Translations under genes and position numbers: made by a program
In this document: one piece after another, positions 14,308 through 41,017 of the stretch
Numbering within the stretch: position 1 is the first letter of the stretch
Layout of the letters: the number at the start of each line of letters is the position of its first letter
DNA from: Macrostomum lignano
Lineage: Eukaryota
Length of the DNA stretch: 64,000 bases
NCBI GenBank assembly: GCA_002269645.1
Contig: NIVC01002121.1
Span: 116,193-180,192 of the forward strand
Reading direction: 5' to 3'
Notes under the pieces: model-generated
Seen by the model: the letters and a program-made list of their open reading frames with translations, nothing else
Databases searched by the model: none
What the model was told of the DNA's origin: nothing

Positions 14308-14488
14308 GGTTGTAGCCTAGTGGTAAGAGTGTCGGACTCACGAATGAAAGGACGGGGGTTCGATTCTCGACCAAATCGGAACAGTTGGTGTACTTGAACA
14401 AGAAACTTAACTCTGCATTGCTTCAGTTCACCCAGCTGTAAAATGGGTGCCAGCATTAGCTGGGGTATTTGAGGGTGTGTGTGGCGAC
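14308..14488 (+). mobile_element. tRNA-derived SINE, 5' half (disrupted by the Polinton-like element)
   Basis: Colinear with 2201-2390 up to GTGTGTGGCGAC. Confidence 0.85.
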
Positions 14489-14872
14489 AGTAGTAGGTAA
14501 AACGACGCCTACAGACCCAGAGCACTTTTTTAACAGCCGTTTTAAGGGTCTAGAGGGGGGACACGGGGGTAAATAAAAAAACACATCTAAACACCCTTAA
14601 CACATCTAATCACCCTTAATCACCCATAAACACCCATAATCACCCACATTACCAAAAAAGCAATATAACCCATCCCCAACCCATCTTATCAGCCCCCCTC
14701 GTGTCCCCCCTCTGGAACCTTATAAACGGCCATTAAAAAAGGTCTGATCTGTAAGCGTCGTTTTACCTACTACTACACATCCAACACCCCCCAACACTTC
14801 TAACACTTCCAAATCTCTATAACCCCTCGCACGCGCCGCAGGCGCGAAGGGTCTTTTTCTGTTACTAAAAAT
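14489..14872 (+). repeat. Left terminal inverted repeat (384 bp)
   Basis: Reverse complement of 23061-23443; three differences seen by eye (one G-run indel, two substitutions). Confidence 0.95.
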
Positions 14873-15185
14873 GACCCGAGTTTACACCTTTTCTGTTAGT
14901 GATACTTTTGAGACTGTTGCTAAAAATGCAGAGATAATAAAACAACATATTTTGAATGGAATAATTGATGAAGTTTATTTGAAGTATGACGACAAGCACG
15001 ACCTAAAACTTTATCCATTAGAGTTGGATGAGATGTATGATTTAGAACAAGAGGGTGAGTTAATATTTCAACTTGGAGATTATTTAAATTCGGATGATTG
15101 GGAGGTTCGTTCAGATGATTCCAACTCAACAAATAGCTCATATGAAACTAGTGATTCTGAGAATGAAATTGAAATTTTTATGTAA
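14871..15185 (+). CDS. Element ORF: acidic hypothetical protein, 104 aa
   Basis: ATG at the TIR boundary in AAAAATG context; D/E/S-rich C-terminus; no family recognised. Confidence 0.6.
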   Translation: MTRVYTFSVSDTFETVAKNAEIIKQHILNGIIDEVYLKYDDKHDLKLYPLELDEMYDLEQEGELIFQLGDYLNSDDWEVRSDDSNSTNSSYETSDSENEIEIFM

Positions 15186-15188
15186 AAA

Positions 15189-15443
15189 ATGAACTATTAC
15201 TCTATAACAGAAACGACATTTATTGTGAAAAATATATATAAAAAAATGAAGGTAAATCGAACCCTAGGTTCGCGTGCTATGCACGATTACTCCTACATCG
15301 GAAATGTTCCAATTAATGAACTTAATGAAAATTTAAGTCTAATCACTGTTGAACAAATGTCAATAATTATATTAGTAACAATAATAGTAATAATATTGTT
15401 TTTGTTTGTTATAAAAAATTTACTACCATGTTGTCTCAAGTAA
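15189..15443 (+). CDS. Element ORF: small protein with C-terminal transmembrane helix, <=84 aa
   Basis: Hydrophobic IIILVTIIVIILFLFVI followed by KNLLPCCLK; AAAAAATG starts at 15189 and ~15246. Confidence 0.55.
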   Translation: MNYYSITETTFIVKNIYKKMKVNRTLGSRAMHDYSYIGNVPINELNENLSLITVEQMSIIILVTIIVIILFLFVIKNLLPCCLK

Positions 15444-15453
15444 TTGTTCGAAC

Positions 15454-17087
15454 TTAGTTCGCTGATATTAGTTGGTTCTCATAAAACGAACCCAATATTT
15501 CTTCACCATCCTTATCAGCAATTATATAGGTTGTAGGATTGGTATTTAAAACTTTACTGATAGTAAATATCTCACTTATTTTCCAATATCCTTTTCTTCC
15601 TTTTTCAAACTTATCTTTCCATTTATAGATATAAACAGAATCACCAACCTTAAAAGATTTCTTTTTATTTTTTTCAAATTCTCTAAAAGTAACTTTAACA
15701 TTTTCAGGATTGCTATAAGCTTGTTGAGGAGTCATCTTTATCGTACGAAATCCGCGTTCCGAAGGAACGATAGCCGAATGATATGAATTATTATAATCTT
15801 TCACGACGTCTGGTAATATTTTTACCCACTTTTGGTTTCCATTAAGACTAAACTGAAACCACAATTTCTTACCTAAAGTTCGATTAAATCTTTCAATTAA
15901 TGCGTTTTTGCTTTCTCCATAAATAGAATAAATTTTATTAATATACTCCCCATTCGCGTCCTTCATCCTTTCTTTTCCTTTTTCAAAATGATATAATTTA
16001 TACATATGAGGATTGTAAAATTCTTTTCCTTCATCAACACATAGCCGCTCACTTTTTTCTCCAAGACTTCTAAAAGCAGCAGCAACCTCCTCACCTTTTT
16101 TGGATTTCAAAGGAACAGCCCACGCGTATCGAGTAAAACCATCTAGTATGGTTAAGATATATTTATATCCTCTTTCATTTGGCATCGACATTAAATCAGC
16201 ATACCAAATTTCGTTCTTTTTGAAGTTCATGATTTTTCTATAAAATTTAGGTTTTCGATATTCTTTATGAAGAATCTTTGCCTCATCAGAACTTAACCCA
16301 CTGCCACTTAATAATAAACACTCAACACAATTATTTCCATGTTGATTGTAATTAATTCCCAAACCAAATTTAACTTTAGATTGCAGAATCTTTTTAATCA
16401 TCCACCTAGTTAATCTTTGGCCTATTGACAATCCTTGTAAATTATCCAATCCTTCAATCATTTTTCTATCGGCTTCATGTTTTAATCTTAATGCTTCCTC
16501 GGGTGAGTTCTTATCAGCATCTCTGTATGCTAAGTCATGATAGTATGCTAACCAATCAATACCATTAATGGGAATTGAATCAGCTTTTGGAGTATCATCA
16601 GGATTTAATCGGAGATCGAGTCGAGTCAACCCGGCCTTTATACCTTTGCTTTCACAAAGGAGTAGACTGTGTCTTAAGCTATCATAAGGATTGACTAAGT
16701 CCTTCAAGCCCACCAGCGTACAGTCGTTGCATCTCAACCATACTCAAGTCATACGAGGTTAGGTTTTCGATTCACTCTTGTCCATATATATCTTCAAGCT
16801 TGTTACCGTTGGGAACAGGAGTTACCTGTGTTCCTTCAGAAGATTTCTCAACTGAAGTGGTACTTGAAGCTTTAGGAGATTGAGTGAGCGGCTGGTGTTG
16901 CCACTAATAGTGACTAGCAGTAGGTTTGCTTCTACCACTCGGGCACAGCTCGAGCTCCACCCGTGAAATTATACGACGGCAGGTGTAATTCATTTGTATA
17001 CCTTCCAGTAGTAAAAACGCTTGGTAAGCTTGTTAATCCTTTTTGTAAGTCTAAAAATCCTCCTTCAAATACTAATTGATTGCTCAT
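15454..17087 (-). CDS. PLA2 (parvovirus/adintovirus-type)-retroviral-like integrase fusion; join(17087..16959,16635..15454), ~436 aa after removal of the group I intron
   Basis: Exon 1 ends ELHLPSYNFTG; exon 2 continues AGLTRLDLRL...PINGIDWLAYYHDLAY...HEAD (PLA2 HD/D catalytic motif). The DDE core follows (WYADL, CVDEGKEF, IERFNRTL), then a Polinton-type C-terminus (GDSVYI...FTISKV...PTTY..GEEILGSFYENQL). Confidence 0.85.
16636..16958 (-). ncRNA. Group I self-splicing intron, 323 nt, no internal endonuclease ORF
   Basis: Minus strand: P1 exon CGGGU with GCCCG (16940-16944; U-G pair at the 5' splice site); P3 CACCAGC/GCUGGUG (16891-97/16711-17); P4 UCACUC/GAGUGA (16882-87/16772-77) with AA in J4/5; P6 AUC/GAU; P7 A(C)GACUG/CAGUCU (16721-25/16665-69) in the S motif AAGACACAGUCU; P9 CCUUUGU-GAAA-GCAAAGG (16643-60); terminal G. 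Excision restores the reading frame. The exact 3' G could differ by a few nt. Confidence 0.88.
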
Positions 17088-17685
17088 TTTTAATAGCCTT
17101 AAAAATACACGATAGCACCAATTGTTTTGCAAATTCATCAATGGTTGGTTGTTTATCATTTTTTGAAATATTATCTACAGCAACTAAGTATCTTTTATTT
17201 CTCCAATTTTCAGACTTTTTAATTTGTTCATCATCGCGATAATCATATGAAGAAGCAGGAATAAAATGATCAATATGTAAAGCACCACAATAGTCTTTTG
17301 GGACGTAATAATGTTTTGTGAAATTTAACCAATCAGTAAAGAATTCAATTGAGCAACCAAGGTAATCAATAGTATGATTATTTTTTCGAGTATTATTAGA
17401 TTTTAGAAGAGAATTTATTCTACATCTGGTGTTTTTTTTATTTCTAAAATTTTCATCAGTTAATCTTCTTTCATTTTCATATTTTCTGCGGCTTTCTATA
17501 TTATTTTTATCGTATTCTTTTTTCCATTGAAGCTTATATTCACGATTTTTCTCATACCATTCTTTATCATACTTTCTCTCACAAGGTTTGCAAATACTAT
17601 AATATCTATTTTGATCTCTACGAAATCTAAACTCAAACAAAAATTTCTCATCTTTACACTTAGTACAAATCTTTTTAGTTTCCAT
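17065..17685 (-). CDS. HNH homing-type endonuclease of the giant-virus-like family with N-terminal CxxC...CxxC Zn finger, 206 aa
   Basis: CTKCKDEK...ICKPC; DYLGCSIEFF; HIDHFIP...N..YL...DNISKNDK (HNH core). Confidence 0.75.
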   Translation of the reverse strand: METKKICTKCKDEKFLFEFRFRRDQNRYYSICKPCERKYDKEWYEKNREYKLQWKKEYDKNNIESRRKYENERRLTDENFRNKKNTRCRINSLLKSNNTRKNNHTIDYLGCSIEFFTDWLNFTKHYYVPKDYCGALHIDHFIPASSYDYRDDEQIKKSENWRNKRYLVAVDNISKNDKQPTIDEFAKQLVLSCIFKAIKNEQSISI

Positions 17686-17708
17686 TTTATAAAAAATAAA
17701 TTTAACAA

Positions 17709-18380
17709 TTAAACACCGGTATGTCCAGCAGCTTTCGCAGCAGCTAAAACAAGTTTTCGTGGAGTTTTAAATCCTTCTCCAACAGCCGGTTTGTTATTTA
17801 TAGAATCAACAATCCTTTTATATAAACTTGTATTCTTAGCAGCTCTTACTCCTAACTCATCATAAAAATTTTTAGCACTTACTAATTCATCTCTAGTGTA
17901 TAAATCGGGGTTAAATTTTACCCTAGGGTTCATAACAATATTATATGCTCCACCCAATTCTCTATATAGCTCATTCTGATTTTTATTAACCCCACCAATT
18001 CGATAATTATTATTATCTAAATCTGTCACAGCAATACTAGTTGGTGCAGGTCTCGGATATTCATCAACTCCACCCCTTTCTGCAGCCCTAATTTCTGCAA
18101 CTCTCAATAGTGCTTGAGCAACATCATAAGTAGGCGGCTCATCCAAAATTTCATCCTCTTTTGGCTCTGTATTCTTAGCAATTTTTTCCAGAAGGTCTTT
18201 ATCTGTTTTTTCTAGTTCACTAATTTTCCCCGTAATAGGATTAACAAAAGGAGCAGCAAATCTTTCACCAGCTAATTGTATTCCTAACTTTCTTTTTTGC
18301 AAATTTCTAACAAAATCAGAATATCTTTGCTTTTCTTTATAAATCGCTAACTCTCCATCAACGTCCATAAATTGACTCAT
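17709..18380 (-). CDS. Element ORF: Polinton-associated conserved hypothetical protein, 223 aa
   Basis: Clean ORF with AAAAATG start. C-terminal GEG...LAAAKAAGHTG resembles a conserved uncharacterised Maverick protein (recalled similarity, unverified). Confidence 0.6.
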   Translation of the reverse strand: MSQFMDVDGELAIYKEKQRYSDFVRNLQKRKLGIQLAGERFAAPFVNPITGKISELEKTDKDLLEKIAKNTEPKEDEILDEPPTYDVAQALLRVAEIRAAERGGVDEYPRPAPTSIAVTDLDNNNYRIGGVNKNQNELYRELGGAYNIVMNPRVKFNPDLYTRDELVSAKNFYDELGVRAAKNTSLYKRIVDSINNKPAVGEGFKTPRKLVLAAAKAAGHTGV

Positions 18381-18413
18381 TTTTTAACATAAAAAACTTT
18401 TTTAACTTAAAAA

Positions 18414-19886
18414 ATGGCTGAAACAAAAACTATGTGGAGTGATAAATTTCATTTCAAAAAGCACCGCCAGTATATTAATGAAGTCAGAGCAAGAGATTTA
18501 AATTTTACCCTACCAACAAGTGATAATTCAAATAACTTTACAACCGGAACGGTAACTTTTGACATCGGCGCAACCAACACTATATTGGATATGAAAAATG
18601 CGTTTTTCCGTGTTAGATGGTTGTATACTAGAAATGATGGAACTGCTCTTGCAGCCGGCGATATCGCAGATCGTTCTGGTATTATAATAGAAAATGATTG
18701 GTTTTATAAATGTTTTTCCCAAGCCCAACTGTCAGTTAATGGAGCCGAGGTTGAGACAGCATCAAACCCCGCAGAGATTAATGGAGTTTTGAAACATTTA
18801 AATTATACTTATTTATCAAAACAAGTTGGTGATAATGTTGGGTGGATGCCTGATAAGGGTAATGGTCAAGCAGTAGTTTTCCCTAATGTACAAAACGCAG
18901 CTGGTGCAGATACCGCAGCTCTTATAGCTTATCTTAATACCAATATAGTTCCAGTTGTAACCACTATGACTAATACAAAAGAGATTAATACAGGTTTTAT
19001 AGATCGTCAGAATAAATTCCCAGTCGCGGTTTTAACCACAGCAACAGCATATGAGCAAGACTTTTCAATCTTTCCGCTATTTGGGTTCTTCTCACCAAAT
19101 CGGGTATGGAAAGGATTAAAATTTGGGATACAATTGCAAATATCTGGTGGATATCAGCCTAGGATACTTTATGGAACCTCAATTTCAACCGATATAGCAG
19201 TTCGTATAGATTCAATTCAATTAGTCGTACCAACTATTGAGGTAACAGCCCCACTTTTAAAACACATTGATAATCAGTTAACGCATGATCAGGAAATATT
19301 TTATTTGAATCGTCGACATTTTATGCGAACCATTAATAATAACCAGGATTCATTCCAGTGGCAGATAATTACATCAAAACGTCGGGTGAGATATATTTTT
19401 GTTTGGTTTAAAATAACAAACAGAAGGAGTAAAAGAACAAATGGGGATTTATATTGGCTTCAATCCGGTGCCATAGCAGCACAAGCAGCTACTGCAACAG
19501 ACAATGCGGCTGCAGCTATTAACGAGTTTAATGTTCAGAACATCCGCCTGCAGGTTGATGATCAATATTATCCGGTTAAAGACCCCCTTAATCTAAACAT
19601 AGCAAATAATAATGTTAATGATTTTATAAAATATTATCAAGATTATGTCAAAAATGAAGCGTTTGCCGTCCCTCAGTACACACCCACAGAGTTTCTAAAC
19701 ATTCATCCAGTGGTTGTTTATGATCTAACGGCACAGAAAGAAAACGTAGCCAATGTTGGACTTAATTACATGTTAGAGATTAATAAAACCGGTAATCAGG
19801 CAATCGACGCCCACGTATTGTTTCTAGAGGAATATATGTCAATTGCTAAAGCTGATGGCACGATTGTTCGGGACGCGCCAATTTAG
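18414..19886 (+). CDS. Major capsid protein (predicted double jelly roll), 490 aa
   Basis: Size, beta-rich pattern, motifs FDIG..TILD..NAF, FSQAQLSVNGAEVE, QYYP...LNL and PVVVYDLT.Q.E typical of Polinton MCPs; lies directly upstream of the ATPase and penton. Confidence 0.8.
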   Translation: MAETKTMWSDKFHFKKHRQYINEVRARDLNFTLPTSDNSNNFTTGTVTFDIGATNTILDMKNAFFRVRWLYTRNDGTALAAGDIADRSGIIIENDWFYKCFSQAQLSVNGAEVETASNPAEINGVLKHLNYTYLSKQVGDNVGWMPDKGNGQAVVFPNVQNAAGADTAALIAYLNTNIVPVVTTMTNTKEINTGFIDRQNKFPVAVLTTATAYEQDFSIFPLFGFFSPNRVWKGLKFGIQLQISGGYQPRILYGTSISTDIAVRIDSIQLVVPTIEVTAPLLKHIDNQLTHDQEIFYLNRRHFMRTINNNQDSFQWQIITSKRRVRYIFVWFKITNRRSKRTNGDLYWLQSGAIAAQAATATDNAAAAINEFNVQNIRLQVDDQYYPVKDPLNLNIANNNVNDFIKYYQDYVKNEAFAVPQYTPTEFLNIHPVVVYDLTAQKENVANVGLNYMLEINKTGNQAIDAHVLFLEEYMSIAKADGTIVRDAPI

Positions 19887-19944
19887 TGTCGCAGGTCTCC
19901 GACCATCGCCCCGCTGTAAAATTAGTTAAATTATTTCTTTAAAA

Positions 19945-20729
19945 ATGGTAAAGGCAAAACACGATAAGATATTTCCAAATGATCCTTTTCTTTGTTTAGT
20001 AATTGGTGGGTCGGGTAAAGGAAAAACACACTTTGTTTACGATTTATTAACAACAGATGGAATGCTAGACTATAATAATTTAATAATTTATACTAACAAA
20101 CCTAGAATAAAATATTATGAATTTCTTAAACATGGTTTAAAAAACAAATTAAAAAAAGATATCTTGTTTAGAATGTTAAGAGCATATGAGCAATATGAGG
20201 ACGATGATGAACCAAGATTTACACTCGATGACATTGAGGATTTATGTAAAACAACAGCAAAAGAACCGGAAAACACCACCGATCGCCCCGAAGGGTCGCG
20301 GACTTCGTCCGATCGAGCCCCAACTGTTAGAGTATCAACCCGATTATCCTATGATCAAATTCCAAAACATGATAAAACACTAATTATTTTTGATGATTGT
20401 ATTAATGATGGTGATCAAGAATTGCAAAAGGAAATTTTTGTTAGTGGTAGAGGAGATGGAATTGGAGCTTTTTATCTTACTCAATCCTTTAGAGAATTAG
20501 AATCGATTATAAAAAAGAATGCTAGCTGTTGTGTAATGTTTGATTTAGATAACTATGATTTACAAAATATACACGCTAGATTTAATCCTGGGTTGGATGC
20601 AAAACCATTCAAAAGTATGTGTAAAAAATTTGGGATGATAGTCAATACAAACATATATATATCAACCCTAGGTTAGAAAGGAAAAATCGAATCTTAAAAG
20701 ATCTGATAAAAGAAGACGATGAGGAGTGA
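19945..20729 (+). CDS. A32/FtsK-HerA packaging ATPase; 1-nt frameshift near 20625 (ORF track ends 20676, shifted frame ends 20729)
   Basis: Walker A GGSGKGKT, Walker B LIIFDD, arginine-finger motif GRGDGI...LTQSF. The shifted frame from 20631 reads WDDSQYKHIYINP...EE*, fitting the usual C..W...Y..I.I tail. Confidence 0.88.
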
Positions 20730-20775
20730 TCGTTCCTTCGGAACGCGGACTTCGTCCGATTCTCCCACTATAAAA

Positions 20776-21561
20776 ATGGCTACAAATTTAGATACTATAA
20801 AACAATTGGTAGATCGAACTAATTCAAAATTTAGTACAACCTTACAGTTTATAATGACAACCAGTGAACAACGCATTCAATTGCGCGATCCATTACAACT
20901 CGATCAAAGCCTAAGTTATCAAATAGGTTTGATACTATTTTCAGTTTTTAACATGCCTCAATTAATTAATGCAACAAATAATCAATTTAGATATTCTAAA
21001 GATTCAGGAGCCAATTGGACAACATTTAGCGTTAATCCAGGAGCGTATTCCTATACCGATTTGAATGCTTATATAGAAGGAGAATTAACAGCTAATGGAG
21101 ATTGGGTATCAGGCGCAATTGTTATAGGGGTTGATTTACCATCTGGCAGATTCACACTATCACTCGAATCCGGATATCAGGTTGATTTCACAATTGCAAA
21201 TTCACTCAGAACCATACTTGGATTTAATTCCCGAATAGTTACCACATCAAGCACCGGCGATACAGTGGGAAATATTGAGGGTGGAGTTAATACAATTAAT
21301 ATAACAACCGATATATCAAACGGTGGTTATATAACAGACGATAATGGAGTTTTGGTTCAACGTGGAATTATTTATTCCATCCCATTTCTTGCTGTTCCAA
21401 TTGGAGAGAAAATGATTGTTTCACCCCAAACCCCAATATATTATCCTTTAAATCAATATAGTGTTCAATCAATTTATATTAGGATTGTAGATGAAAGCGA
21501 TAGATTAATAAGTTTTGGTGGGCAGTCAATAACAATAATTTTACGGATAAAACAGGTTTGA
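20776..21561 (+). CDS. Minor capsid (penton-like, single jelly roll) protein, ~261 aa
   Basis: Start MATNLD in TAAAAATG context; L.DPLQL...YQIGL..F, NNQFRY...W...NPGAYSYTDLN and YYPL..YSVQSIYIRIVDE..RLISF pattern of Polinton minor capsid proteins. Confidence 0.72.
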   Translation: MATNLDTIKQLVDRTNSKFSTTLQFIMTTSEQRIQLRDPLQLDQSLSYQIGLILFSVFNMPQLINATNNQFRYSKDSGANWTTFSVNPGAYSYTDLNAYIEGELTANGDWVSGAIVIGVDLPSGRFTLSLESGYQVDFTIANSLRTILGFNSRIVTTSSTGDTVGNIEGGVNTINITTDISNGGYITDDNGVLVQRGIIYSIPFLAVPIGEKMIVSPQTPIYYPLNQYSVQSIYIRIVDESDRLISFGGQSITIILRIKQV

Positions 21562-21605
21562 CCGAACCGAAGGTTCGAGGACATCGTCCGTTTCCTATAG
21601 TAAAA

Positions 21606-21779
21606 ATGGGTAACAATAATAGTTTAAAAAAACAATCAGATAAAGTTCAAAACGCAAAGGATAATTATGAAATCGAACTAACAAAATTGAAACAATTACA
21701 AGCAGAAAAAATCCGAAAGGAACTATTAAAATCCAAACCTACGAAACTAACTAAAACCAAGAGTTTTTCAGGAACATAA
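21606..21779 (+). CDS. Small basic protein with N-myristoylation consensus (MGNNNS), 57 aa
   Basis: TAAAAATG start; Gly2/Ser6; Lys-rich coiled segment. Confidence 0.55.
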   Translation: MGNNNSLKKQSDKVQNAKDNYEIELTKLKQLQAEKIRKELLKSKPTKLTKTKSFSGT

Positions 21780-21780
21780 A

Positions 21781-22020
21781 ATGGTAATAACTTGGGGCGA
21801 CTTCAAACAAAGATATGGAACTGACACAACAAGCAATATTGAATTAACAAATTGGGCGCGGCAGTTAAAAATAAAACCATTCAGATGTGTTATGCGAGAT
21901 GAGATCAAAGACTTACCACAATATGGATCTTTCATTGTTAATATTGAAACAACAAAAGAAAATGGTGTTCAGTGCTATCGTGTATTTTTAAGGCTATTAA
22001 AAATATTAAAAAAAAAATAA
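21781..22020 (+). pseudogene. Truncated adenain-like cysteine (maturation) protease
   Basis: TSNIEL..W...L.IKPFRCVMRDE..DLP...FIVNIETTKENGV matches the N-terminal half of Polinton proteases up to the expected catalytic His (G-x-H-W). At that point the sequence switches to a 33-nt copy of 17086-17118 and stops. Confidence 0.72.
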
Positions 22021-22629
22021 TATAAAAACATTACTACTATTAATGGTATCAATAAGTTTCTGTTTGAATTGTGCGTCCTGTGTTATTTGCTGTCTTTGAA
22101 ATTCTGCATCTCGTTTAGCTTTTTCATCCGCAGCTTTTTTATCATTTACTGCTTTTGTGATTCCAGCTGCGCCCCCTGCTATTCCACCAGCTGCTCCTAT
22201 TCCTGCAAAAATTATTGGTAATAAAGTTGCTAATGGCAATATTCCTCCTTGTTTTGCTTTTAATTCTGCTAACTGTTTTCGGTTATCATGAATTCTTTTA
22301 CCTGCTAAACCGGCTGCTCCGGCTGCTCCGAGGCCTAAAAGAATTGGTAAAATAGGTAACAACCCACCGTCTTTTTTAGTGTGAGTCTCCAATAAAAATT
22401 TTACATCAGAGTCTGTCAACCTATAATTTCTACCATGATACTTAAAGGATATTGGCCTTCCTTCTTGTGCATATTTTGCAGCAAGTTTAAATGTATCGAT
22501 ATCGTAGTCAAGTTTTTTACCTAAACGATCCAATTTTTTTAACATTGTGTGGCTATGTTTATTATCATCTAGATCTAAAGTATCTACAATTTCTCCTATA
22601 AAATATAAGCGGTCGTTATCTGTGTCCAT
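22006..22629 (-). CDS. Membrane-active core/cement-like virion protein with two GG-LP...GAAGG hydrophobic repeats, 207 aa
   Basis: KKDGG-LLPILPILLGLGAAG and AKQGG-ILPLATLLPIIFAGIGAAGGIAGGAAGITKAVNDKK, a motif typical of Polinton/adintovirus core proteins. Confidence 0.65.
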   Translation of the reverse strand: MDTDNDRLYFIGEIVDTLDLDDNKHSHTMLKKLDRLGKKLDYDIDTFKLAAKYAQEGRPISFKYHGRNYRLTDSDVKFLLETHTKKDGGLLPILPILLGLGAAGAAGLAGKRIHDNRKQLAELKAKQGGILPLATLLPIIFAGIGAAGGIAGGAAGITKAVNDKKAADEKAKRDAEFQRQQITQDAQFKQKLIDTINSSNVFILFFF

Positions 22630-22639
22630 TTTTATATTG

Positions 22640-23050
22640 TTAAAATTTCTTTAATCCTTTTCCGCCTTTAATTGTGGTTAACATTTTATTAAAATCCTGA
22701 ATATCTTTATTACTTATTGGCGCGCTTTTCGTGGGGGTTTCTGTTGGTTGTGCGGCTTGAGTTGTTTCCTGCGCTAGTTTCAAATCTTTTATTGCTTTTA
22801 TTTGTGAGAGGGTGTCGTTAAATTCTCTCAATTTCTTTAGTTCTTCTACTGCCCTCGCTGCTTCGATTCCGCCCTTTACAGCGTTTGTTATAGAACCTGC
22901 TGCAGAGCCTGCTTGGCCTATAAGACCCATATTGTCTTTAACGAAATTCGCTGCTGTACCAACCACATCAAAAAGACCCTCACCTCGGTATTCAACTGGG
23001 TCTCCCACCTGCAATTCGTTCAGATTTTGCATATGTGTAACGTGTGTCAT
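22640..23050 (-). CDS. Putative virion core protein with amphipathic helix, 136 aa
   Basis: RGEG-LFDVVGTAANFVKDNMG amphipathic segment; C-terminal KGGKGLKKF; AAAAAATG start next to the right TIR. Confidence 0.55.
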   Translation of the reverse strand: MTHVTHMQNLNELQVGDPVEYRGEGLFDVVGTAANFVKDNMGLIGQAGSAAGSITNAVKGGIEAARAVEELKKLREFNDTLSQIKAIKDLKLAQETTQAAQPTETPTKSAPISNKDIQDFNKMLTTIKGGKGLKKF

Positions 23051-23060
23051 TTTTTGTTCT

Positions 23061-23443
23061 ATTTTTAGTAACAGAAAAAGACCCTTCGCGCCTGCGGCGC
23101 GTGCGAGGGGTTATAGAGAATTGGAAGTGTTAGAAGTGTTGGGGGGTGTTGGATGTGTAGTAGTAGGTAAAACGACGCCTACAGATCAGACCTTTTTTAA
23201 TGGCCGTTTATAAGGTTCCAGAGGGGGGACACGAGGGGGGCTGATAAGATGGGTTGGGGATGGGTTATATTGCTTTTTTGGTAATGTGGGTGATTATGGG
23301 TGTTTATGGGTGATTAAGGGTGATTAGATGTGTTAAGGGTGTTTAGATGTGTTTTTTTATTTACCCCCGTGTCCCCCTCTAGACCCTTAAAACGGCTGTT
23401 AAAAAAGTGCTCTGGGTCTGTAGGCGTCGTTTTACCTACTACT
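23061..23443 (-). repeat. Right terminal inverted repeat (383 bp)
   Basis: Reverse complement of 14489-14872. Confidence 0.95.
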
Positions 23444-23513
23444 GGCGACCCCCCAGTCCTTGGACTGAACAGCCGTGCGCAGCCTTCAGATGCGCCGCGC
23501 AATAGCTGCGGCT
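23444..23513 (+). mobile_element. tRNA-derived SINE, 3' half
   Basis: GGCGACCCCCCAGTCCTTGGACTGAACAGCCG..GCAGCCTTCAGATGCGCCGCGCAATAGCTGCGGCT matches ~2385-2456. Confidence 0.88.
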
Positions 23514-31027: not shown

Positions 31028-34000
31028 TTAATAATCATCCTTGACCCGTTTAGCCTGCTGCATGGGATCCTGGGCCAGCCGCTTGCTGCCTGTAGCCAGG
31101 CCGCCGCCCCCAATGCCAACGCCTGGCAGGGCTGAGGCGCCCTCCTGCAGCCAGCGGACCTGAGTAGCCGGTCCGTAGCCTTTGTCATTCCTAGCGGCGA
31201 TGCGAAATATGACAGCCGGCTTGCTGCTCATATCGATGTAGGCGGCGGCCAGGCTCTGGTTGGACACCTGGCAGAATGGCTGGGAGCCGCAGTACACTCT
31301 AGCGAATGACATCTGCTGCTGGCCGCCGGCCGTCTTGGCCTCGATGCTGCTGGCACCGACCGGGGCCGGTTTCACGGCTAAGTACACCGTGTACTCGAAT
31401 ATGTCGCCGGAACCCGGGGCGCTGGGCGGCGGCGGCTCCCAGGATAGCTGGGCGCCGAAATCTGACTTATTAATTTTAATAGCCGACGGAGCGCCTGGGA
31501 AGCCGGGCACGCAGGTTTTGTAGGCGGCCACCTCGGACCAGGGCCCGCGGCCGCAGGCGTTAACAGCGCACACGCGGAATCTGTAAGCAGTGCCAGGCGT
31601 CAGGTCGCAGCGTTCGAGTACGCCGGCACTGTTGGGAGCCAGGTAATTGCGCACGCAATAGGAGGTGCCGCGCACCGTGGCCACGTCGTGCCAGAGCCCG
31701 CCGCTGCCGTCGGCATTGGACGACGAGGCCGGCGACACGCCGGATGCCACAAGCGGATTAGCCGAAGACGATGTTGTTGAAACTGTGGCGGCTGGCGTAG
31801 CTTTTTTCAGGCCGGCGGCGGCCACGCTGGCCAGGGTGGCCAGGGGATCGGCCAGCAGGCCGGGCGTGCCGTTGGCTGAGTCGGCCACGGTGGCGAACAG
31901 GTCGTAGGGCAGGTCGGTCGGCAAATCCTCGCTGCCGCCGGATGCCGTAGCGGCTGCGGCGCCGGACGTTGTCGGAGTCGCGCCCGAAGTCGACGACGAC
32001 GAAGCGGCGGCCTGATGGCCATCAGGCTTGTCCGCTCCGGCAGCCTCGTCGCCTTCATCAACAGCGCCGTCGAATTGCGGAATTGTTGAGGAGCCGCCAG
32101 CGTCAGAAGTTGAGGCTGAGGCGCCGGTGCCGCCGGTACTGATGACCGGCTTGACAGTGAATGATGGCGCCTGCTGCTGCTGACCGCTGGCTGGCGCATT
32201 CATGACAATGATTGGCGATGCGGTGGCTGCGCCCTGCGCCTGCGGCTGGCCGATAGAGCCGCGGCTAGCAGCGATGATGTACTTGGAGGTGCCGGTAGCG
32301 CCAGGAGCCAGAGGCCTAGCCTGCTGCGGCAGCAGCTTCACAACCTGCGATGCGCTGGACATGGTTGGCCGGAGAATCTGCTGGCCTGTGGGCGTCTTCA
32401 CCAGAGTCATCATCTGCTGCTGAGCGAGCTGGCCAGCCGGCCTGGCTAATTGGATCACCTGGGCTGGCCGGCTGACAACCACGGTCGGGGCCACGCGCTG
32501 CGGCTGCAGAGTCACCCTGGCAACACCGCCGCCGCCGCCGCCGGCTGCCATCGAGGCCGACACGGGTACGCCTGCGGCCATCAGGGCGGCAACGCCGGGT
32601 TGAATAGCCGAAGTCGGCGTTGGCGGAGGCGTCGGAGCCGGCACTACTAAGTCGTACTTTTGAATCTGCAGCACGTATTCGTCAGCTGTGGCTACAGCTG
32701 GCCAGCACACGTCTAAACTGTGAGTATTGGCTTTGACTAGCTGGACTCGGCCAACCACTGGCGGAGCGTCTGTCTCCAGTAGCCAGAGATCTTTGAAGCA
32801 CACCTGCGAGTGTTATGCGGCGAGTTTGACACTGATGTAATGGGTGAGATTCAGAAAACAGAGAATTAAAGGGCGTGAGGGGAAGCGGACAAACCAAAAG
32901 ACCAGAGGCGGATTTGGAAATATAAAATGAGGGGGGCGGATTTTAACCATAAGTGGGGGCGCCATAATATACACCAGAGGGGCACCATAATATACACTAG
33001 AGGGGCACCATAATATACACTAGAGGGGCACCATAACATACACTAGTGGAGTACCATATTAGACACTAAGAGGGCGCCATACTGAGCAAACTGAGGGCGG
33101 AGGGGACCCTCTTTAGGGCAAAGGAAAAGGGGCGGCCCAAAAGCCAATCCAACAAACCTGATTGCCCCAGGCCTTGCGAAAGCCGTCTCTCCCGGACCAA
33201 ATCCACAGTCGGCTATTGACGGACACGGCGCAGTGGCCGGCGCGCGGCCTCGGCACCAGATCGTCGGCGGCGGCACTACTGGGATAGTCGTACACGTGCC
33301 AATTAAGAGTCTCCAAGTCCAGACAGGCCAGGGTGTTGGTGCAGCGCCACTCGGACTCGGCCTGGACGGTGTCGCCAACGCTGAGCGCCTCGGTCTTGTC
33401 TCGCTCGGTCATGGCTGCCCAGCCGCCGAAGACGAACATTTTAGCGCCAATCATAGTGGCGCTATGCAGCGACCTTGGCGCCGGCGGACTACCGTGCACC
33501 ATTGGCCTGGTCCAAACCAGCGAATCCAAATCCAACTGCCACAGATCGTTAAGCCTAGTGCCATTGTTCATGCCGCCAAACACTAGCAGGTGCCATTTAC
33601 GTTGGTTATTAACGCCGGCAGTTTGGAAGGACACGGCCGAGTGCGACTCGCGCGGGCAAGGCGTCATGCCGGCCGGCTTCAGCAGATCCCAGGCGGTGTT
33701 GCCGGCCTTCACGTCCATGGCGTATAGGTCGTCTAAATAATGCGGCACGTTGGCCTTCAAATCGGTGCTCTTGTTGGCCAGGCCGCCGAATAGGATGGCC
33801 CGGCCGCCGGCCAGGGTGAACGAGTGGCCGAGTCTGGCGCAGGGCGGCGGACCGTGACGCGGCGGCTTCGGTTTAATCCGCTTCCACTCCCATCTGGTGG
33901 CCTGCAATTCGAATACTTCGTCAGAATAGCGGCCGTATTCCATCATGCCGCCGAATAGTAGAATTCGGGTGCCATCGGCTACAAAGCCGAAGGCGGCGCA

Positions 34001-37000
34001 GCCGTGTGGCACATCGCCTCGCACCTGCGGCTGGAACCACTGGCCAGTGGCTGCGTTGGGTTGGGGGTAGAATATGTTAGATTAATTAGACCATACGCCA
34101 TTGTTAACTACTTGGAAACTAAGACAATTAATCTAGCAGACTATTTGCCCATCTCAGTTAAACGGCTAGTTGCAGAATATTTCTATGCAACAAATAGCCA
34201 ATTTTAATGTTGAAAATTTCAAAATTAAGGTTGTTAACAAGCATAAACCACTTCTATAACCTTCTTTAGTCTGTTTGTCTCTTTAGTAGATGGGTTAGTG
34301 GCATGTTTTGAAAAATGGAAGAGAGGAAGTAGCTATCAATTTTTAACTGCTGATGTGTATTGAATGTCTGTTTAATCAAGAGGATTTCAGTTTTCATAGA
34401 GAGGATTTTTGATAGATTTCTATTTCTTGGAGAGGATTTTGGTTGAATTATCAATCAAAAAGGGTCCTTTATGCCTATACTCAGGAAAGTGTCACATGTG
34501 CTCAAAAATATTTTTAGCATCTCTTTTGGAGCATGCACTGTGCGCAAAGCTAAAATACAAATTTTAGCACTAAGTCTTATATTTGTTTGATATAAAAATA
34601 CCTATATAGTGGAGCACTAATGTATAGTAATACTAAAAAATCTAGTAAAATTCAAATTAAATTAAAATTTAAATTAACAGATCAATTTTGTTGCATTTTA
34701 AGGCCTTTTTAATTAAATTTAAAATTCTGTTTTATTTTAGCTCATACTAGCAATCAGCACCCCCCATTGGGGAGCCAAAAAAATGCAGTAAAAGTTTTTT
34801 AATGAACTACATGTAGCATTTCTTTGCATTATACCTTAGTAGTCCCTTGTAAACCTTGACGTGTCAGCAATTCCGCCACAAGCTTTAACATATCAACCCC
34901 CCCTTGACATCTTAAAAAATTGGTCAACCTAGCTTCTAAGCCTAACCCTAGCCTAATATAACCTTAATATAACCTTAACCCTAGCCTAACCCTAACCCTT
35001 AAGCATTGACATTTTAGTAATTCTCACCAAGAGTCATTATAGCACTACATCATCATATCAATTCCCTGCAACCCTCAACATTGTAGATATTCCCAAATAA
35101 ATCTCTTAACTTTGACATGACGCTTCTTTTGTTTTTTTAAATGAACTTTTTTTATCAGTGAATAAAGTTGAATAAACTACATATAGCTTCTGACTTTAGC
35201 CTTGACATCTCATTTATTCCCCTATGAGCCTTGACATCTTAGCTATTCCCCCATAAGCTTTGACATCATAGTAATTCTCCTCAAAAGTCATAGCACAGTT
35301 TCATATGATATTTTTACATGATGCTTCTTTAATGTCTAATATGAAATTTCTTTCATTTCTGATATTACACTTCCTTCATGTCTGACTGACATGACGCTTC
35401 TTTTGTCAAGGCTTTATTCTACTTTAGAATAAAGTACATGTTTATACCTGTTTAAACTACAGCTTCTCTTTGCAATAACCTTAGCAATCCCTTGGGAGCC
35501 TTGACATCTCAGCTATTCCCCTTGCAAGTCTTGACATCTTAGCAATGCCCCCCATAAACCTTGAAATCTGAAAAATCACCTGTCAACCTTGAAACCCCAT
35601 AAACCCTAATCCTAAATCAAAACCTAAACTAAACCTAACCCTAACCCTAAAGCCTTTACATTGCAAAAGTTCTTCTCCCCTAAGCCTTGACATTTTAGTG
35701 ATTCCTCCCCAAGAATCACAGCACTATAGCGATTCCCTCCAAGCTTTGACATTGTAGCAATTCCCAAATGAATCTTTTAACTTCGACATGACTCTTTTTT
35801 ATGTCTACATAATGCTTCTTTTCTTTTTACATGATGCTTCTTTTATCAGCGCCCCCCGTGGCAAGCCAACAAAGAATATAAAAAAAAATTTGAGCACAGT
35901 ACATGTAGCTTGACTTTTGCCTTGACATCTCAGAAATCCCACTATAATCCTTTACATCTCAGTTATTCTCTGTGAGCCTTGAGTGTGCCTTGAGGAGTAA
36001 TTCTCCTTAAGAGTCACAGCACAGTTTTATGTGATGCTTCTTTTATTTTTGACATTATGCTTCTTTTGATTTTTACACAATACTTCTTTCATGTCTGACA
36101 TGACACTTCTTTTATTATTCTTTCTTTTATTATTATTTTTACATGACCCTTCTATAATTTTTACATGACGTTTCTGAAATTTTTACATGACATTTCTTGA
36201 ATTTTTTACATGACACCTCTATAATTTTTTACATGATGCTTTTATGATTTTTTTATATGACACTTCTATAATTTTTATATGACACTTCTTTTTAAAAAGT
36301 TTTTTAGTTTTAGTTTTTAGAAGCTTTAATAAAACAATTCTACTCTAAGAAAATTTGAACCATCATTGCTGCATTTAGCAATTTGGTCTATTACCTCTAG
36401 GCTAGCTCTCATTGTTTTGATAGCATGAAATTTAGTGCTTATATAATTCAACACTTTAAACTCCAAGCATAGAGTAAATCACACAAAGCAGTTATGAGAT
36501 AATCAATTTCTCAGTCAGTCAGTATCAGTTAACAATATGGTGCTACGCTTCCACAATGCATTTTCAATTCAAGTTGAAGTTACAATTCAGTTATGATGCA
36601 ATTTATTTCAGAATCAGAATTCAACCAGTCAGTTTTTTCTGTAGCATTCTTATAATGCTTTTGCATATGCATATTTTTTCTAATGCATATTAGAAAAACA
36701 TGCTTCTAATATCTTAGGAAAAAAAATCATACTATGTTCTATTATCACTATTATCATGCTTTTTGTCTTATTCCATAGATTCCTATAGCCAATGTTCTTA
36801 ATTTAAATAAATAAATAAATATTAGAAACAGGTAGAATAAGACAAATATACTTTGGTAAACTGTATTATAGACTTAGAAACTTATAGATTATATCTAATC
36901 AGTGTTGGGCACTGTTAATGAAAATCTTAACTTCCATTAAAAACAAAAGCATTAATGTTAAAATGAAAAAAAGCTTAACTTTTTAACTCTTTATTTTGTT

Positions 37001-40000
37001 AAGTTAACTGAAAATTAACTGATAATCATTAATAAGCATTAATTGATTAAAGTTAACACAGAAATTCAGAAATCTTGCACATTTTTCAAAAAACAGACTT
37101 TATAATGCACTGCTTTTGCTTTTCTATTTTTTTAGTAAAACACAGGTCACCCAACAGATTTACAAGCTCAAAAATAAAAAATAATAATAGTAAAAACTTG
37201 TAAGTACAATACTACTAAAAGTAAGCACATGGTAAACAAAGTAACTTATTTATTTGAAACTTGAAAAGCTAATTAGTTAATGATAAAATACAAATAAGGT
37301 TGTTTCAATAGCATTAGCAGGTGTAGCAGAAAGTTACAAAAGGTTGGCAAAGAAGTCAATCAAAGCAATCGATGCTCAAGCACAAGCAAAAAAGTTCACA
37401 ATTTTAATTCATTATTAAAGTTCATTAGTAAGTTGTTACATCTGCATGATCATTGTCATAAACAAAGAGATTAATTAGGCATTTAGGTAAATTTGAATAC
37501 ATTTATAATGTTGTAACTTCTTGTTAGACTTGTATTTTTGTTTTTTTTCTGTGTTGTTAGTCTTGACACTGTCATTGACATCAATGATTAATTTGTTGTG
37601 AACTCACAAAATAATTAACACAAATTTGTTAATCTGTTAGTTCAAAAAATCTTAATGGCAGTCCATTAACATTAATGAAAAATATTAATGCTTATTAATA
37701 GATTAATGCTTATTAATAGACCAGCGCCCAACACTGTATCTAATAAAGTACAATAAAACACTAGCAAATTATAACTTTTATTAATATGAAAAAGTTTAGC
37801 ATTAGTACTTTAGTAGAGATTAAGTATTGTTACGCTTTATAAAACTGATGAAATATAATCTTACAAAGGCAATCAAGTGTTTGTTTTATTTTCTACCTTC
37901 TTTTGCAGTTGTTTAAGCACCAGGTTATCTTCTTGACTCAAAATGTTTTGTTTCCTGGACTTTTTATTAAAACTGAAGCTATGGCTATAGGAACTATGCG
38001 AATATGGTAATATTGGGATCTCTATAGCTAAGGAATATAGAAAATTGGAATAAGCCATAATTTTGCTTATGGCTATAGCACATGGACCCCCTTTATTGTG
38101 GAACACTAATGTCAGGTATTATATGCCAAGCATATTTTAGGTCCACTATATGCCACACAGTGGATAGTTCAATTATTTTGGCATATTACTTTGGTATACT
38201 ACCTTGAGCTTAAATAGATTTTTAATACATTAGCTGGGCGCATGTCCAAAAAAATAATAATTACAAATGCATGCCAAAAAAATTTAGTGCATACCAATTC
38301 TTAAAAATAGGTCGGTGTTGCAACAATAAATGACATTTTTTACATTATAACAATAGATGACATTTATTTAAATTGTGTAATAGACCCTTATTAGCAGATA
38401 ACTTAGTTGATTTTTGTGCTTTTTTGTGATACTATTTATACTAGAAAATTGATACACACAAAGATTTGTTTAAATGCTTCTTCACAAGCTTGAAAAAAAC
38501 AGAAAACTTCTGCTTAAAAATTAACTTTTTTTCTACTTCACAATGACTCAATTCTATAAAGTGCACACTTCAGAGTTTTTTTTAAAAACAAAGGTAAAAA
38601 AATTAAACCTTAAATTATAGTTAAAATTTAGTTAACAATGAATGTCTATCTAAATTTATGTTTAAAAAATGTCTTATTTATTTTGGTTGTTTCATTTTAT
38701 AAAAAATTATCTTTCATTTTTAAATGCCTAATATATAGTAATATAATATTGCCAGCTATCTATATATTCAATATTTGATATTCAGTGAATACTTATATAT
38801 TTCTTTTTTAATCACTTATTGGAAAATTGCTCTCTATAAAGTTCATATAATACCTGTTTTATAATTCCTTATTTAAATACTTTTTTGTTTTATTAGCTAT
38901 TAAATTTATTTTGAAGATTCATAGAGAATTGTTTAGCTACTCTTTCAAATACTATATATGGTGAAATCAAAAAATCGGGGGCAAGTTTTATGAAAATTTG
39001 TTTTTTTGGCAATTTGAAAGCAATAAAGCTATAAAATAAATTTATTCAAGTTTTTAAAAGGTAAAAAAGTCTATTAAAGCACAAATTATTTTTGTATAAC
39101 TTTATTTTTTAATAAAATGATTTGTTGAAATGGTAAGTTTAATTACAACCTAAAATGAGTCGAATGAAAATGCTAGAAAAGCTATAATAATGTATTTTAT
39201 TAACTTTAACTATCTTATAATGTTACACTCTATAATTCTACAACATATTTAACATTATTTTCAAGGGTTTATTTGTTTATCACTTTTGTTACTCTTGACA
39301 ACGTGTATTTTGTAGAGTTCGTTTGCAATAAATTGTATTCAACATAAGTTTATTATTTAAACATACAAATTCCTGTAAGGATCGGAAAATTGCATTTTAC
39401 TTAGCTTCTACTAAAGCGATTGGGAAAATTCTTTTTTTCCTGCATATACGCCGCGATGATACATGTTTTAGTGCAATTTTATTGTTCTTCGTTGCTTAAT
39501 GAGCATACAGTAAGCATCTGATTTGGATGCCGGGTTCACATTTTGTGGTACCATTTTTTGCCCAAAATTTTGAAGTCTAAATATAGGCATATTACAAATA
39601 CTAATACTATGCAAGTTGATATTTAAATGAAAGAAAACAACTTAAAGATTATTTTGCAACAAGGAATTAGCAATATATTTTTACTTTTAGAGAAAGATGT
39701 TTGCTGGCAAACTTTGCACTTTATATTAGTATGAATTTTCGCGAGTTTATATGGTTTTAGAAAAACTTTGAAATCATTAGAAATACTTCATCTTTTTGAA
39801 TTGAATAAAAAGTAAAACACAGATTACTTTCTGTTTTGTAAGTAGTAAAAAATTAGCCTTCTCTAAGGCCTACAAGTCTTAAAATTAATTGTTAAATAAT
39901 GAAAAAAAGTGAAATAAAAAATTGCAAATCGGTCAACTCGGACTTTCAAAATGTTTTTTGTGGTTTTTTATTTATTCAACAATATAAAGCGTGAAAACGA

Positions 40001-41017
40001 TAGTTTTTATCCAGAACTATTTTCTAAAGACCTATTTATCTTTCAAAAACTTTTTTTAGATACATTACTTTCCATGGAATATCCGCAGATTTGTTTTACC
40101 ATTTTATCCCACGTTTTTGGATTTCGCCATATAATTTTAACAAAACTCATACTTATTAAAACAAAATCATAAGATTCAAAACAAGATACTTCTAATATTC
40201 AAAGACTTCATTAGTAAATAACTGCTTGCAGAAGACTATTAGATCCATAGCCATTAAAAAATGGGTTCCAATGTTGGAACTCTAGCCATTACCAAAAAAA
40301 GGCAAATGCCCTTATTGTACGCTAGAAAACCCTGGCATACATATTGCCTTCTAAACTATAATAGGCTAAATAGGCTTTTTTGCCTAAGCTAAACTTATTA
40401 GGCCTACTACTATTACTATATTTTTGCAATGCAAAAGTGGCATATATTGGATATGCTATAATGAAAGAGACATTTTCTAAAATATGTTGTACTATGAACT
40501 ATAGTCAAACAGACTAGGCTTAAGTTAGAATTTTTTGGCATATATATAATATTTGATTTGGGAATAAGGCTTTCAATCCACTATAAAAATTAAAGTTTGG
40601 CTTAAATTGGGTAAATTTGAATTATGCCTAATGCCAATGGCCTCAAAACTAAATTATCATTTATTCTTGTTTACTACATACATAATATTAAAAATCAGAT
40701 AAGTCATATGATAGGCTAACATTAATGAATAAATCACAGTATTTTATTTTCATTCAAATAATTCAAAGTCATTCAATCTCATCAAGTCGTTACATGATAG
40801 GAAAAAGCAAAATTTAATTAAATGTCATGAAAAAATAAAACTACTCACTTGTGTTAAAAACGTGAAGGTCATCAATGATTCCTTCATTTCCACCTCCAAA
40901 TATTATAATAAGGTCCTTAATTGACACAGCTTTGTGACCATGCCGTGGTCTAGGCAGTGGAATGTTACCAGATGATGTGTGTGCGACCTTTTTCCACTTA
41001 AAAGGTATGTCAGCCAT
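31028..41017 (-). CDS. HCFC1: Host cell factor 1 (Kelch repeats + FN3 SAS domains); join(41017..40849,34050..33158,32803..31028), ~945 aa
   Basis: Exon 1 [35 protein letters not shown]; exon 2 [27 protein letters not shown]...[14 protein letters not shown]; exon 3 [11 protein letters not shown]...[39 protein letters not shown]...[24 protein letters not shown] junctions keep frame. Confidence 0.95.
34744..36660 (-). repeat. Dispersed repeat copy A (~1.9 kb) with telomere-like (CCCTAA)n patches; inverted partner of 42780-45345
   Basis: Multiple 50-250-nt blocks are reverse complements of copy B (34744-34820 vs 45270-45345; 36370-36655 vs 42785-43110). Confidence 0.8.
36900..37736. mobile_element. 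hAT-type MITE, 837 bp, in HCFC1 intron 1
   Basis: TIR CAGTGTTGGGC(A/G)CTG at both ends; 8-bp TSD TATCTAAT at 36892-36899 and 37737-37744. Confidence 0.85.

Follow-up and report, generated by a model that had tools for sequence, protein, structure and literature searches.

A polymerase-free Polinton in Macrostomum lignano as a probable deletion derivative within an animal Polinton family that carries group I introns

The element described here occupies positions 14489-23443 of a 64,000-nucleotide stretch of Macrostomum lignano DNA (GenBank assembly GCA_002269645.1, contig NIVC01002121.1, positions 116,193 to 180,192 of the forward strand), which is called the window below and from whose first base all positions are counted. 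We interpret this 8,955-bp element as a deletion derivative of a full-length Polinton that arose after insertion (probability about 0.85). Its family is a recently active, autonomous Polinton/adintovirus of an animal, and in sequence and structure the group I introns and nucleases found in it are genuine. Judged from its sequence, the intron in the fused PLA2-integrase gene is probably spliced.

The element is A+T-rich compared with its flanks. Its terminal inverted repeats (TIRs) are 99.2% identical over 384 bp (2 mismatches, 1 gap) and a 6-bp target-site duplication (TSD) surrounds it. Long TIRs together with a 6-bp TSD are a trait of the Polinton/Maverick (adintovirus) family, and the trait is also seen in copies on contigs C441, C870 and C1776 (copies in the host assembly, G000, are cited by contig; the window copy is G000:C2121). 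These boundaries had already been given in a preliminary description made from the window sequence, and they hold. The same is true of the absence of the DNA polymerase pPolB and of a helicase: neither is found among the open reading frames (ORFs) of the element, and none of the 14 proteins scanned (14 of 14) gave such a Pfam match, while the scan recovered the integrase, the A32 ATPase, a weak PLA2 and a pX-like domain.

Four sister copies (C441, C870, C1776 and C77) are 17.5-19.1 kb long, the first three with 6-bp TSDs of their own, and they align to the window on either side of a join at 21972-22032, which replaces 8.7-8.9 kb. In the sisters, this missing segment contains small ORFs, the rest of the protease gene, a fibre-like gene of 662 aa that bears an F5/8 domain, and a pPolB of 1319-1324 aa. 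The last protein has polymerase motifs A, B and C as well as an EndoVII domain, and its relatives include PF03175-bearing and polymerase-named proteins. Both the protease gene and the pX-like core-protein gene are severed mid-frame at the join. The protease ORF agrees with the sister on contig C87 over 63 of 145 residues only and stops there, and the ORF at 22006 has 207 aa versus 324-328 aa in the sisters. The ATPase (PF04665, above cut-off) ends early and in another frame, at 243 aa versus 252-254 aa. An intact capsid module is not confirmed.

Self-comparison revealed that the 33 nt at 21972-22004, where the protease ORF turns nonsensical, are an exact inverted copy of 17086-17118. Identity with the parent ends at 21971, which rules out exact microhomology at the join. 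The partners of the join share a 5-nt word, part of which is retained in the window, and the 28-nt filler resembles a spot beside the 3' end of pPolB (88-92% over 25-31 nt), a likeness that may be due to chance in such an A-rich sequence. Among 40 scored matches the whole join is present at the window locus only (1 of 40); its right half occurs twice on C87 and its left half once in the assembly. The earlier proposal of a deletion derivative is therefore borne out by the lost 8.7-8.9 kb and the cut genes, but its mobilisation in trans is not, since the join is whole at one locus only.

The insertion site of the window element is also found on C87, with an identical TSD, flanks that match at 95-99% and, over 7,486 positions of the element's left part, 7 differences. 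C87 keeps about 2.6 of the 4.0 kb of pPolB, in two pieces. Because C87 shares TSD and flanks and has these pieces, the parent at this site had a polymerase, and its loss followed integration. C87 consists of tandem units and an inverted right-end copy that carries 2.8 kb of host flank, and one unit has two long terminal repeat (LTR) retrotransposon insertions that the other lacks. As a whole, G000:C87:100793-155730 is a 55-kb complex rearrangement with two fresh gypsy-type insertions, whose LTR pairs are 99.8% and 100% identical. The parent would have integrated at full length and then been rearranged in place. Template switching during repair could have created a C87-like structure. If such a haplotype then underwent an inversion between its inverted repeats and afterwards a deletion, exactly the order seen in the window would result. 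The 9-kb copy has lost its replication, fibre and maturation genes and, among the candidates scored, has left no copies. What the near-identical TIRs and the TSD date is the arrival of the full-length parent at this site rather than any transposition of the 9-kb form, and the recent integration asserted earlier is valid in the former sense only.

In order to survey the family, the best 40 of 305 candidates were scored in the TIR search and the best 87 of 585 in the major capsid protein (MCP) search, while other searches scored 150 of 265 and 150 of 760 candidates. Six TIR matches reach at least 99%, all on C2121 and C87. The MCP search gave at least 87 copies, 46 of which could be paired with a right-end ORF (3 of the 46 are the window's insertion site). 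All measurable copies at other sites (43 of 43) span at least 11.8 kb and contain pPolB, which was recognised by polymerase matches in 30 and by opening the loci in the other 13 (13 of 13); the longest spans may pair two copies. A second, PF03175-positive pPolB class (1156 aa; E 8e-20) is present in 12 of the 13 opened loci. Polymerase swaps, in which a near-identical capsid gene is accompanied by a PF03175-positive pPolB in the same slot, were noticed on C3469, C506, C166, C3108, C4889 and C3109, and further on C581, C986, C271, C1197 and C1574. MCP and pPolB matches show recurrent breaks.

Two other explanations of the 9-kb form have to be weighed. It had been suggested that the element represents a satellite-like class of 9-kb polymerase-free elements, which are packaged and integrate but borrow replication from a helper. 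The TIRs, TSD, integrase part, MCP and minor capsid ORF are indeed intact and full-length helpers abound in the genome. However, the join is entire at the window locus only, every measurable copy elsewhere is long and has pPolB, C87 retains pieces of pPolB at the very same site, and three genes are cut or shortened, all of which makes such a class very improbable. Polymerase-free 9-kb copies at multiple loci with different TSDs, which the preliminary description had asked for, were absent among the copies measured in the TIR, MCP and join searches, and the same short structure with differing TSDs at two or more sites was not encountered among the scored candidates. That only this locus is short while the others have pPolB, named beforehand as the sign of a one-off deletion or an assembly error, is what the 43 measurable copies show. 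Concerning the latter, the 9-kb form could be an assembly collapse of a repeated, inverted C87-like locus and not exist as DNA. C87 is packed with near-identical inverted and tandem segments, and the single occurrence of the join's left half would suit a collapse. On the other hand, the join connects two places 4.9 kb apart on opposite strands that share no long overlap, which is not what a collapsed repeat or a fold-back read would produce. In addition, the two LTR retrotransposons in one C87 unit are flanked by 4-bp duplications and the other unit has empty sites, indicating that the C87 rearrangement is biological, and we consider a collapse unlikely.

Several observations weigh against a post-insertion deletion confined to this locus. 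Among the pieces listed over 21750-22250 from the contigs of 4 of 24 runs, none bridges the join, although contigs drop rare variants. In all 4 runs, the full-length form is what follows on from the loose ends at or next to 21971 and 22033, and the depth in the filler bin is 0.44, 0, 0 and 125. Moreover, 41 of the 87 MCPs lie outside the length measurement (15 of these 41 have a polymerase match 8-10 kb downstream) and the candidates were scored in part, so rare short copies elsewhere are possible. Finally, 37 of the 54 right-end ORFs that lacked a polymerase match lie outside the opened set.

The preliminary description considered all interior ORFs accounted for, but it missed a group I intron in the PLA2-integrase fusion, of which its integrase is the 3' part. 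The integrase ORF (rve, PF00665, E 1.8e-7, 31.8 bits, marginally under the cut-off of 32.6) is open upstream into the catalytic part of PLA2, and the 5' part of PLA2 follows 330 nt further. In the intron-less copy L034 (C3967), a single PLA2-integrase ORF of 424 aa is found, with PF08398 above cut-off and PF00665 matched. To a census of the site, every one of 85 MCP-anchored copies (87 minus two C87 repeats) contributed a single locus, and the site could be located in all but 6. Among the 79 located sites, the last 6 of which were read by eye from unclassified rows, 76 bear an intron (17 of type A, as in the window, 55 of type B and 4 with a type-B 3' end) and 3 are intron-less.

Type-B introns match RF00028 above the gathering threshold (54.6-71.3 bits) in 5 of 15 loci; counted by class, such matches are found in 8 of 8 type-B, 0 of 2 intron-less and 0 of 3 type-A loci. 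Within the 15 loci, Rfam detected no intron beyond the PLA2 site. In type A, hand-picked helices comprise a P1 with a U-G pair, P2, P2.1, P3-P9, a P5abc domain and a GNRA-capped P9, with P4-P6, P8 and a P3-P7 pseudoknot that has a G-C guanosine site. None of 100 shuffled versions of type A folds as well (z -3.07). A core grammar fits types A and B and the introns of a second Polinton family (family 2, below). It also fits 6 of 1000 shuffles and, when the element is cut into 148 tiles, a single one, namely the tile over the insert; it was written after the insert had been seen, and its P9 demand was loosened from 4 to 2 closing pairs. P7 has three sequences across the three intron forms, all fully paired and with the G-C guanosine site kept. 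The P2 of type A was found in nine type-B introns, indicating that the introns recombine. The 5' end of type A is set by the U-G pair of P1, and its 3' end lies within about 16627-16636, where there is more than one candidate. The intron would splice itself out of the mRNA, so that a PLA2-integrase fusion protein could be made.

A spliceosomal intron was rejected, as no choice of GT and AG ends yields the exon register seen in the intron-less allele. In most type-B introns (e.g. those of L010, L019 and L031), the nine bases before the terminal A are stop-free codons, so another 3' site is possible. One type-A intron (G000:C249:319738-320564) contains an 826-nt LTR-like insertion in the P8 region, which looks like a lone LTR and not like a nuclease.

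The alternative to splicing is that the inserts are dead group I introns or other insertions which inactivate PLA2, with the integrase made from its own start. The points that count against splicing are the following. Type A stays below the Rfam cut-off (31.8 bits, E 1.9e-6, gathering 50, in a chosen 411-nt search) and was missed both in a 9-kb whole-element scan, which gave two chance snoRNA/riboswitch matches and nothing else, and in the multi-locus scan. Its 3' end, in itself unclear, maps uncleanly onto the intron-less allele, and at the intron-less register the last base of type B is A in 42 of 57 and G in 15 of 57. With a separate A-rich ATG at 16461, the integrase part may not depend on splicing. 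One copy holds an LTR within the intron, and the type of the neighbouring nuclease is independent of the type of intron. Against dead introns, the core helices and guanosine site are preserved through three diverged forms, and family 2 introns end in G at the expected register in 18 of 20 loci. Furthermore, exon 1 is open in 70 of 72 copies and under purifying selection (pN/pS 0.28 over 37 alleles, the pairs being not independent), and giant-virus introns of a similar kind are confirmed to be spliced (PMC5871332). We therefore regard inactive inserts as rather unlikely. The intron-bearing elements might also derive from a contaminant protist, as group I introns in Polinton-like viruses (PLVs) have so far been reported from protists only, according to the accessible part of PMC12220804. 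However, copies with 6-bp TSDs are embedded in long contigs, and the family occurs in runs under one organism label from 7 studies. The host assembly, with 86 Wnt matches, is that of an animal, and C506 and C952 each bear Wnt exons and an intron-bearing copy on one contig, so contamination is scarcely credible.

Directly upstream of the gene, 72 classified intron-bearing copies have a nuclease slot, which is filled by an HNH/EndoVII-like protein in 50 and by an Eco47II-like (PD-(D/E)xK) protein in 22. When the genome was searched with RF00028, 28 of 28 scored matches were above gathering, and the 20 loci opened all belong to a second Polinton family (L037-L056; e.g. G000:C716:320001-339000), with another gene order and the same PLA2 intron site. 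Its integrase is about 57% identical to that of the window family, pPolB is present, and its intron is about 880 nt long in the 12 of 20 loci that could be measured. In L038, the intron encloses a 228-aa Eco47II-like ORF, which is 61% identical to the free-standing nuclease. The intron would have spread to near fixation by homing. The first driver would have been the free-standing nuclease encoded next to it (collaborative homing); in the second family, this part would have been played by a nuclease that had presumably moved into the intron. Collaborative homing is known from phages (Zeng et al. 2009 and Bonocora and Shub 2009, as told in PMC11296320). As in the phage systems (PMC11296320), a free-standing nuclease lies about 100-160 nt from the intron site and is the proposed forerunner of intron-encoded nucleases; both arrangements exist here, with proteins 61% identical and cleavage that is predicted. 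Unlike in phages, the carrier here is an integrated virus of a eukaryote. Since homing requires genomes with and without the intron to come together and recombine, a multi-copy viral phase is suggested.

In its core, type B has an unusual P7 and J8/7 that recur in introns of Rpb1 genes and in those of capsid genes of nucleocytoplasmic large DNA viruses (NCLDVs), at about 70% over 170 nt. A 19-nt core word of type B was found in 5 viral contigs, four times in a split Rpb1 and once in an NCLDV capsid gene, two of them with RF00028 matches. A 24-nt core word was found in 4 metagenome contigs, three with Rpb1 motifs and one being L162 again. All exact core-word matches elsewhere (9 of 9, two from one source contig) lie in giant-virus-type Rpb1 or capsid genes; the collections searched lack eukaryotic ribosomal DNA (rDNA), and these matches are no ranking of all relatives. 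The viral and metagenome contigs L159-L167 have group I introns, several with GIY-YIG ORFs, at or beside the catalytic NADFDGD motif of Rpb1 and, in one case, within a capsid gene of NCLDV type. In viral contigs, the type-A core word has 0 matches and no PLA2-integrase relative was found. Gene starts of the form TA(3-5)ATG are seen in 11 of 13 genes versus 15 of 270 ATGs overall, and we take them to resemble poxvirus late starts. A search of the host assembly for NCLDV capsid and VLTF3 gave no match, but the controls were equally silent and the result is uninformative. A link with large DNA viruses may exist for the whole family, through the introns and gene-start signals, and not as the borrowed replication of the window copy that had been envisaged. 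On the basis of the core-word matches, the TA(3-5)ATG starts and the single-exon genes, we tentatively raise the possibility, without holding it to be the likelier case, that animal Polintons are, or recently were, virophage-like satellites that are transcribed in a giant-virus factory, where introns, nucleases and hairpins were acquired and from which they were carried into the germline.

The features of the element are listed in Table 1. For the protease and penton proteins, Pfam and PHROG gave no match, and the labels are those we presume from position and motifs. The MCP of the window matches no profile itself, while 41 of 54 aligned relatives match the double jelly roll (DJR) profile PF21738; its closest relatives outside the host genome are 41-51% identical. 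Single-sequence folding of the MCP gave no usable model (pLDDT 30), and PDB sequence searches with pPolB and with the MCP profile gave 0 matches. Each TIR repeats its own first 80 bp in inverted form at about 85% identity (14489-14569 versus 14695-14774 on the left, with the mirror image on the right), which would allow either end of the element to form a fold-back.

Table 1. Features of the Polinton element and its borders in the window
Feature	Position	Strand	Remarks
Left TSD, 6 bp	14483..14488	.	identical TSD on C87
Left TIR, 384 bp	14489..14872	+	holds internal inverted copy of its own first ~80 bp
104-aa acidic ORF	14871..15185	+	kept in sister copies; no family match
84-aa ORF with hydrophobic stretch	15189..15443	+	no family match
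3' exon of fused PLA2-integrase gene	15454..16626	-	PLA2 catalytic part, then rve integrase
30-nt hairpin insert, in frame within integrase	15741..15770	.	in window and C87; absent in 13/13 other measured copies
Group I intron, type A	16627..16958	-	RF00028 below gathering; helices P1-P9
5' exon of PLA2-integrase gene	16959..17087	-	43 codons
Free-standing HNH/EndoVII-like nuclease, 206 aa	17065..17685	-	PHROG endonuclease VII, E 1.8e-9
223-aa conserved ORF	17709..18380	-	no family match
Major capsid protein, 490 aa	18414..19886	+	double jelly roll through relatives
A32-type packaging ATPase	19945..20676	+	final ~15 residues in other frame, likewise on C87
30-nt double-hairpin insert, in frame within ATPase	20282..20311	.	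absent in 10/11 measured other-site copies
Double-hairpin insert, gap between ATPase and minor capsid genes	20729..20760	.	varies among copies
Probable minor capsid (penton) protein, 261 aa	20776..21561	+	size and position; no profile match
Double-hairpin insert after minor capsid gene	21561..21596	.	varies among copies
57-aa basic ORF	21606..21779	+	
5' remnant of probable maturation protease	21781..21971	+	63/145 codons; motifs and position; no profile match
Deletion join	21972..22032	.	33-nt inverted copy of 17086-17118 and 28-nt A-rich filler
5' remnant of pX-like core/membrane protein gene	22033..22629	-	199 of 324-328 codons; PF05829 E 6.9e-5, below cut-off
136-aa ORF, putative protease-processed core protein	22640..23050	-	
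Right TIR	23061..23443	-	
Right TSD, 6 bp	23444..23449	.	

Besides the inserts in Table 1, which are about 30 nt long and consist of two 15-nt hairpins, further cases were observed at 19885-19923 and inside type-B introns (L084). Strong hairpins number 5 in the element versus a mean of 0.075 in 200 resamples. One of the LTR retrotransposons on C87 has inserted into such a double hairpin. Double-hairpin or repetitive hairpin-forming elements occur in fungal and sponge mitochondria. Like those, the inserts are short, G+C-rich and variable between close copies, and they enter introns and intergenic gaps. Unlike those, they are 30-nt units of two 15-nt hairpins and are also placed in frame inside viral ORFs. 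Elsewhere in the window, the 10.6 kb at 34744-45344 are A+T-rich (GC about 0.26), lack any long ORF and have the appearance of an old foldback-type element, with long, degenerate inverted arms (about 76%) in which a 23-nt tandem repeat is found. A host exon with kelch repeats lies at 33113-34081 (- strand), presumably similar to host cell factor 1.

The family agrees with animal Polintons and adintoviruses (PMC8502044) in the 6-bp TSD, long TIRs, rve integrase, A32/FtsK ATPase and DJR capsid, and in the probable penton and protease as well as PLA2 and pX-like genes. Its full-length members have two pPolB classes on one capsid background, like the Alpha and Beta PolB of adintoviruses (PMC8502044) and nematode Polintons (10.1101/2023.08.22.554363). 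Unlike in adintoviruses (PMC8502044), PLA2 is fused to the integrase here and to pX there, and the window copy has lost pPolB. The accessible parts of PMC8502044 and 10.1101/2023.08.22.554363 make no mention of group I introns in animal elements. In PLVs, such introns were restricted to elements of Paulinella, Desmodesmus and Rhodomonas and were found by profile search, without an assigned nuclease, according to the accessible text of PMC12220804, whose Tables S11-S12 enumerate the intron-bearing elements and could bear on novelty. The introns here resemble those of protist PLVs (PMC12220804) in belonging to RF00028, in measuring about 300-380 nt and in interrupting a gene close to the MCP gene of integrated elements. 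They differ in that the host is an animal, the host gene could be named, some alleles lack the intron, there are two intron types, and nucleases lie beside or inside the intron. Bodo saltans virus (PMC5871332) likewise has introns in essential protein-coding genes, with nuclease ORFs. Such giant viruses are non-integrated and their matching introns have GIY-YIG ORFs, whereas HNH/EndoVII-like or Eco47II-like nucleases are found here.

A group I intron in an animal Polinton was not found in the searchable literature, outside which most subscription journals lie. To our knowledge, nuclear group I introns have been recorded from the rDNA of fungi and protists only. Those of animals have been described from mitochondria of non-bilaterian lineages (PMC5633667). 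If our interpretation is true, near-fixed introns in a protein-coding gene of an animal Polinton would extend the range of group I introns to animal nuclear DNA. On the more tentative satellite reading, that DNA would contain working group I ribozymes, many of them ending in A, and a single genome would hold all stages of homing: the empty site, the intron with a free-standing nuclease, the nuclease within the intron, and chimeric introns. The kinship with giant-virus introns offers a concrete way to test two views of how animal Polintons replicate, either on their own in the nucleus or as satellites that depend on large DNA viruses.

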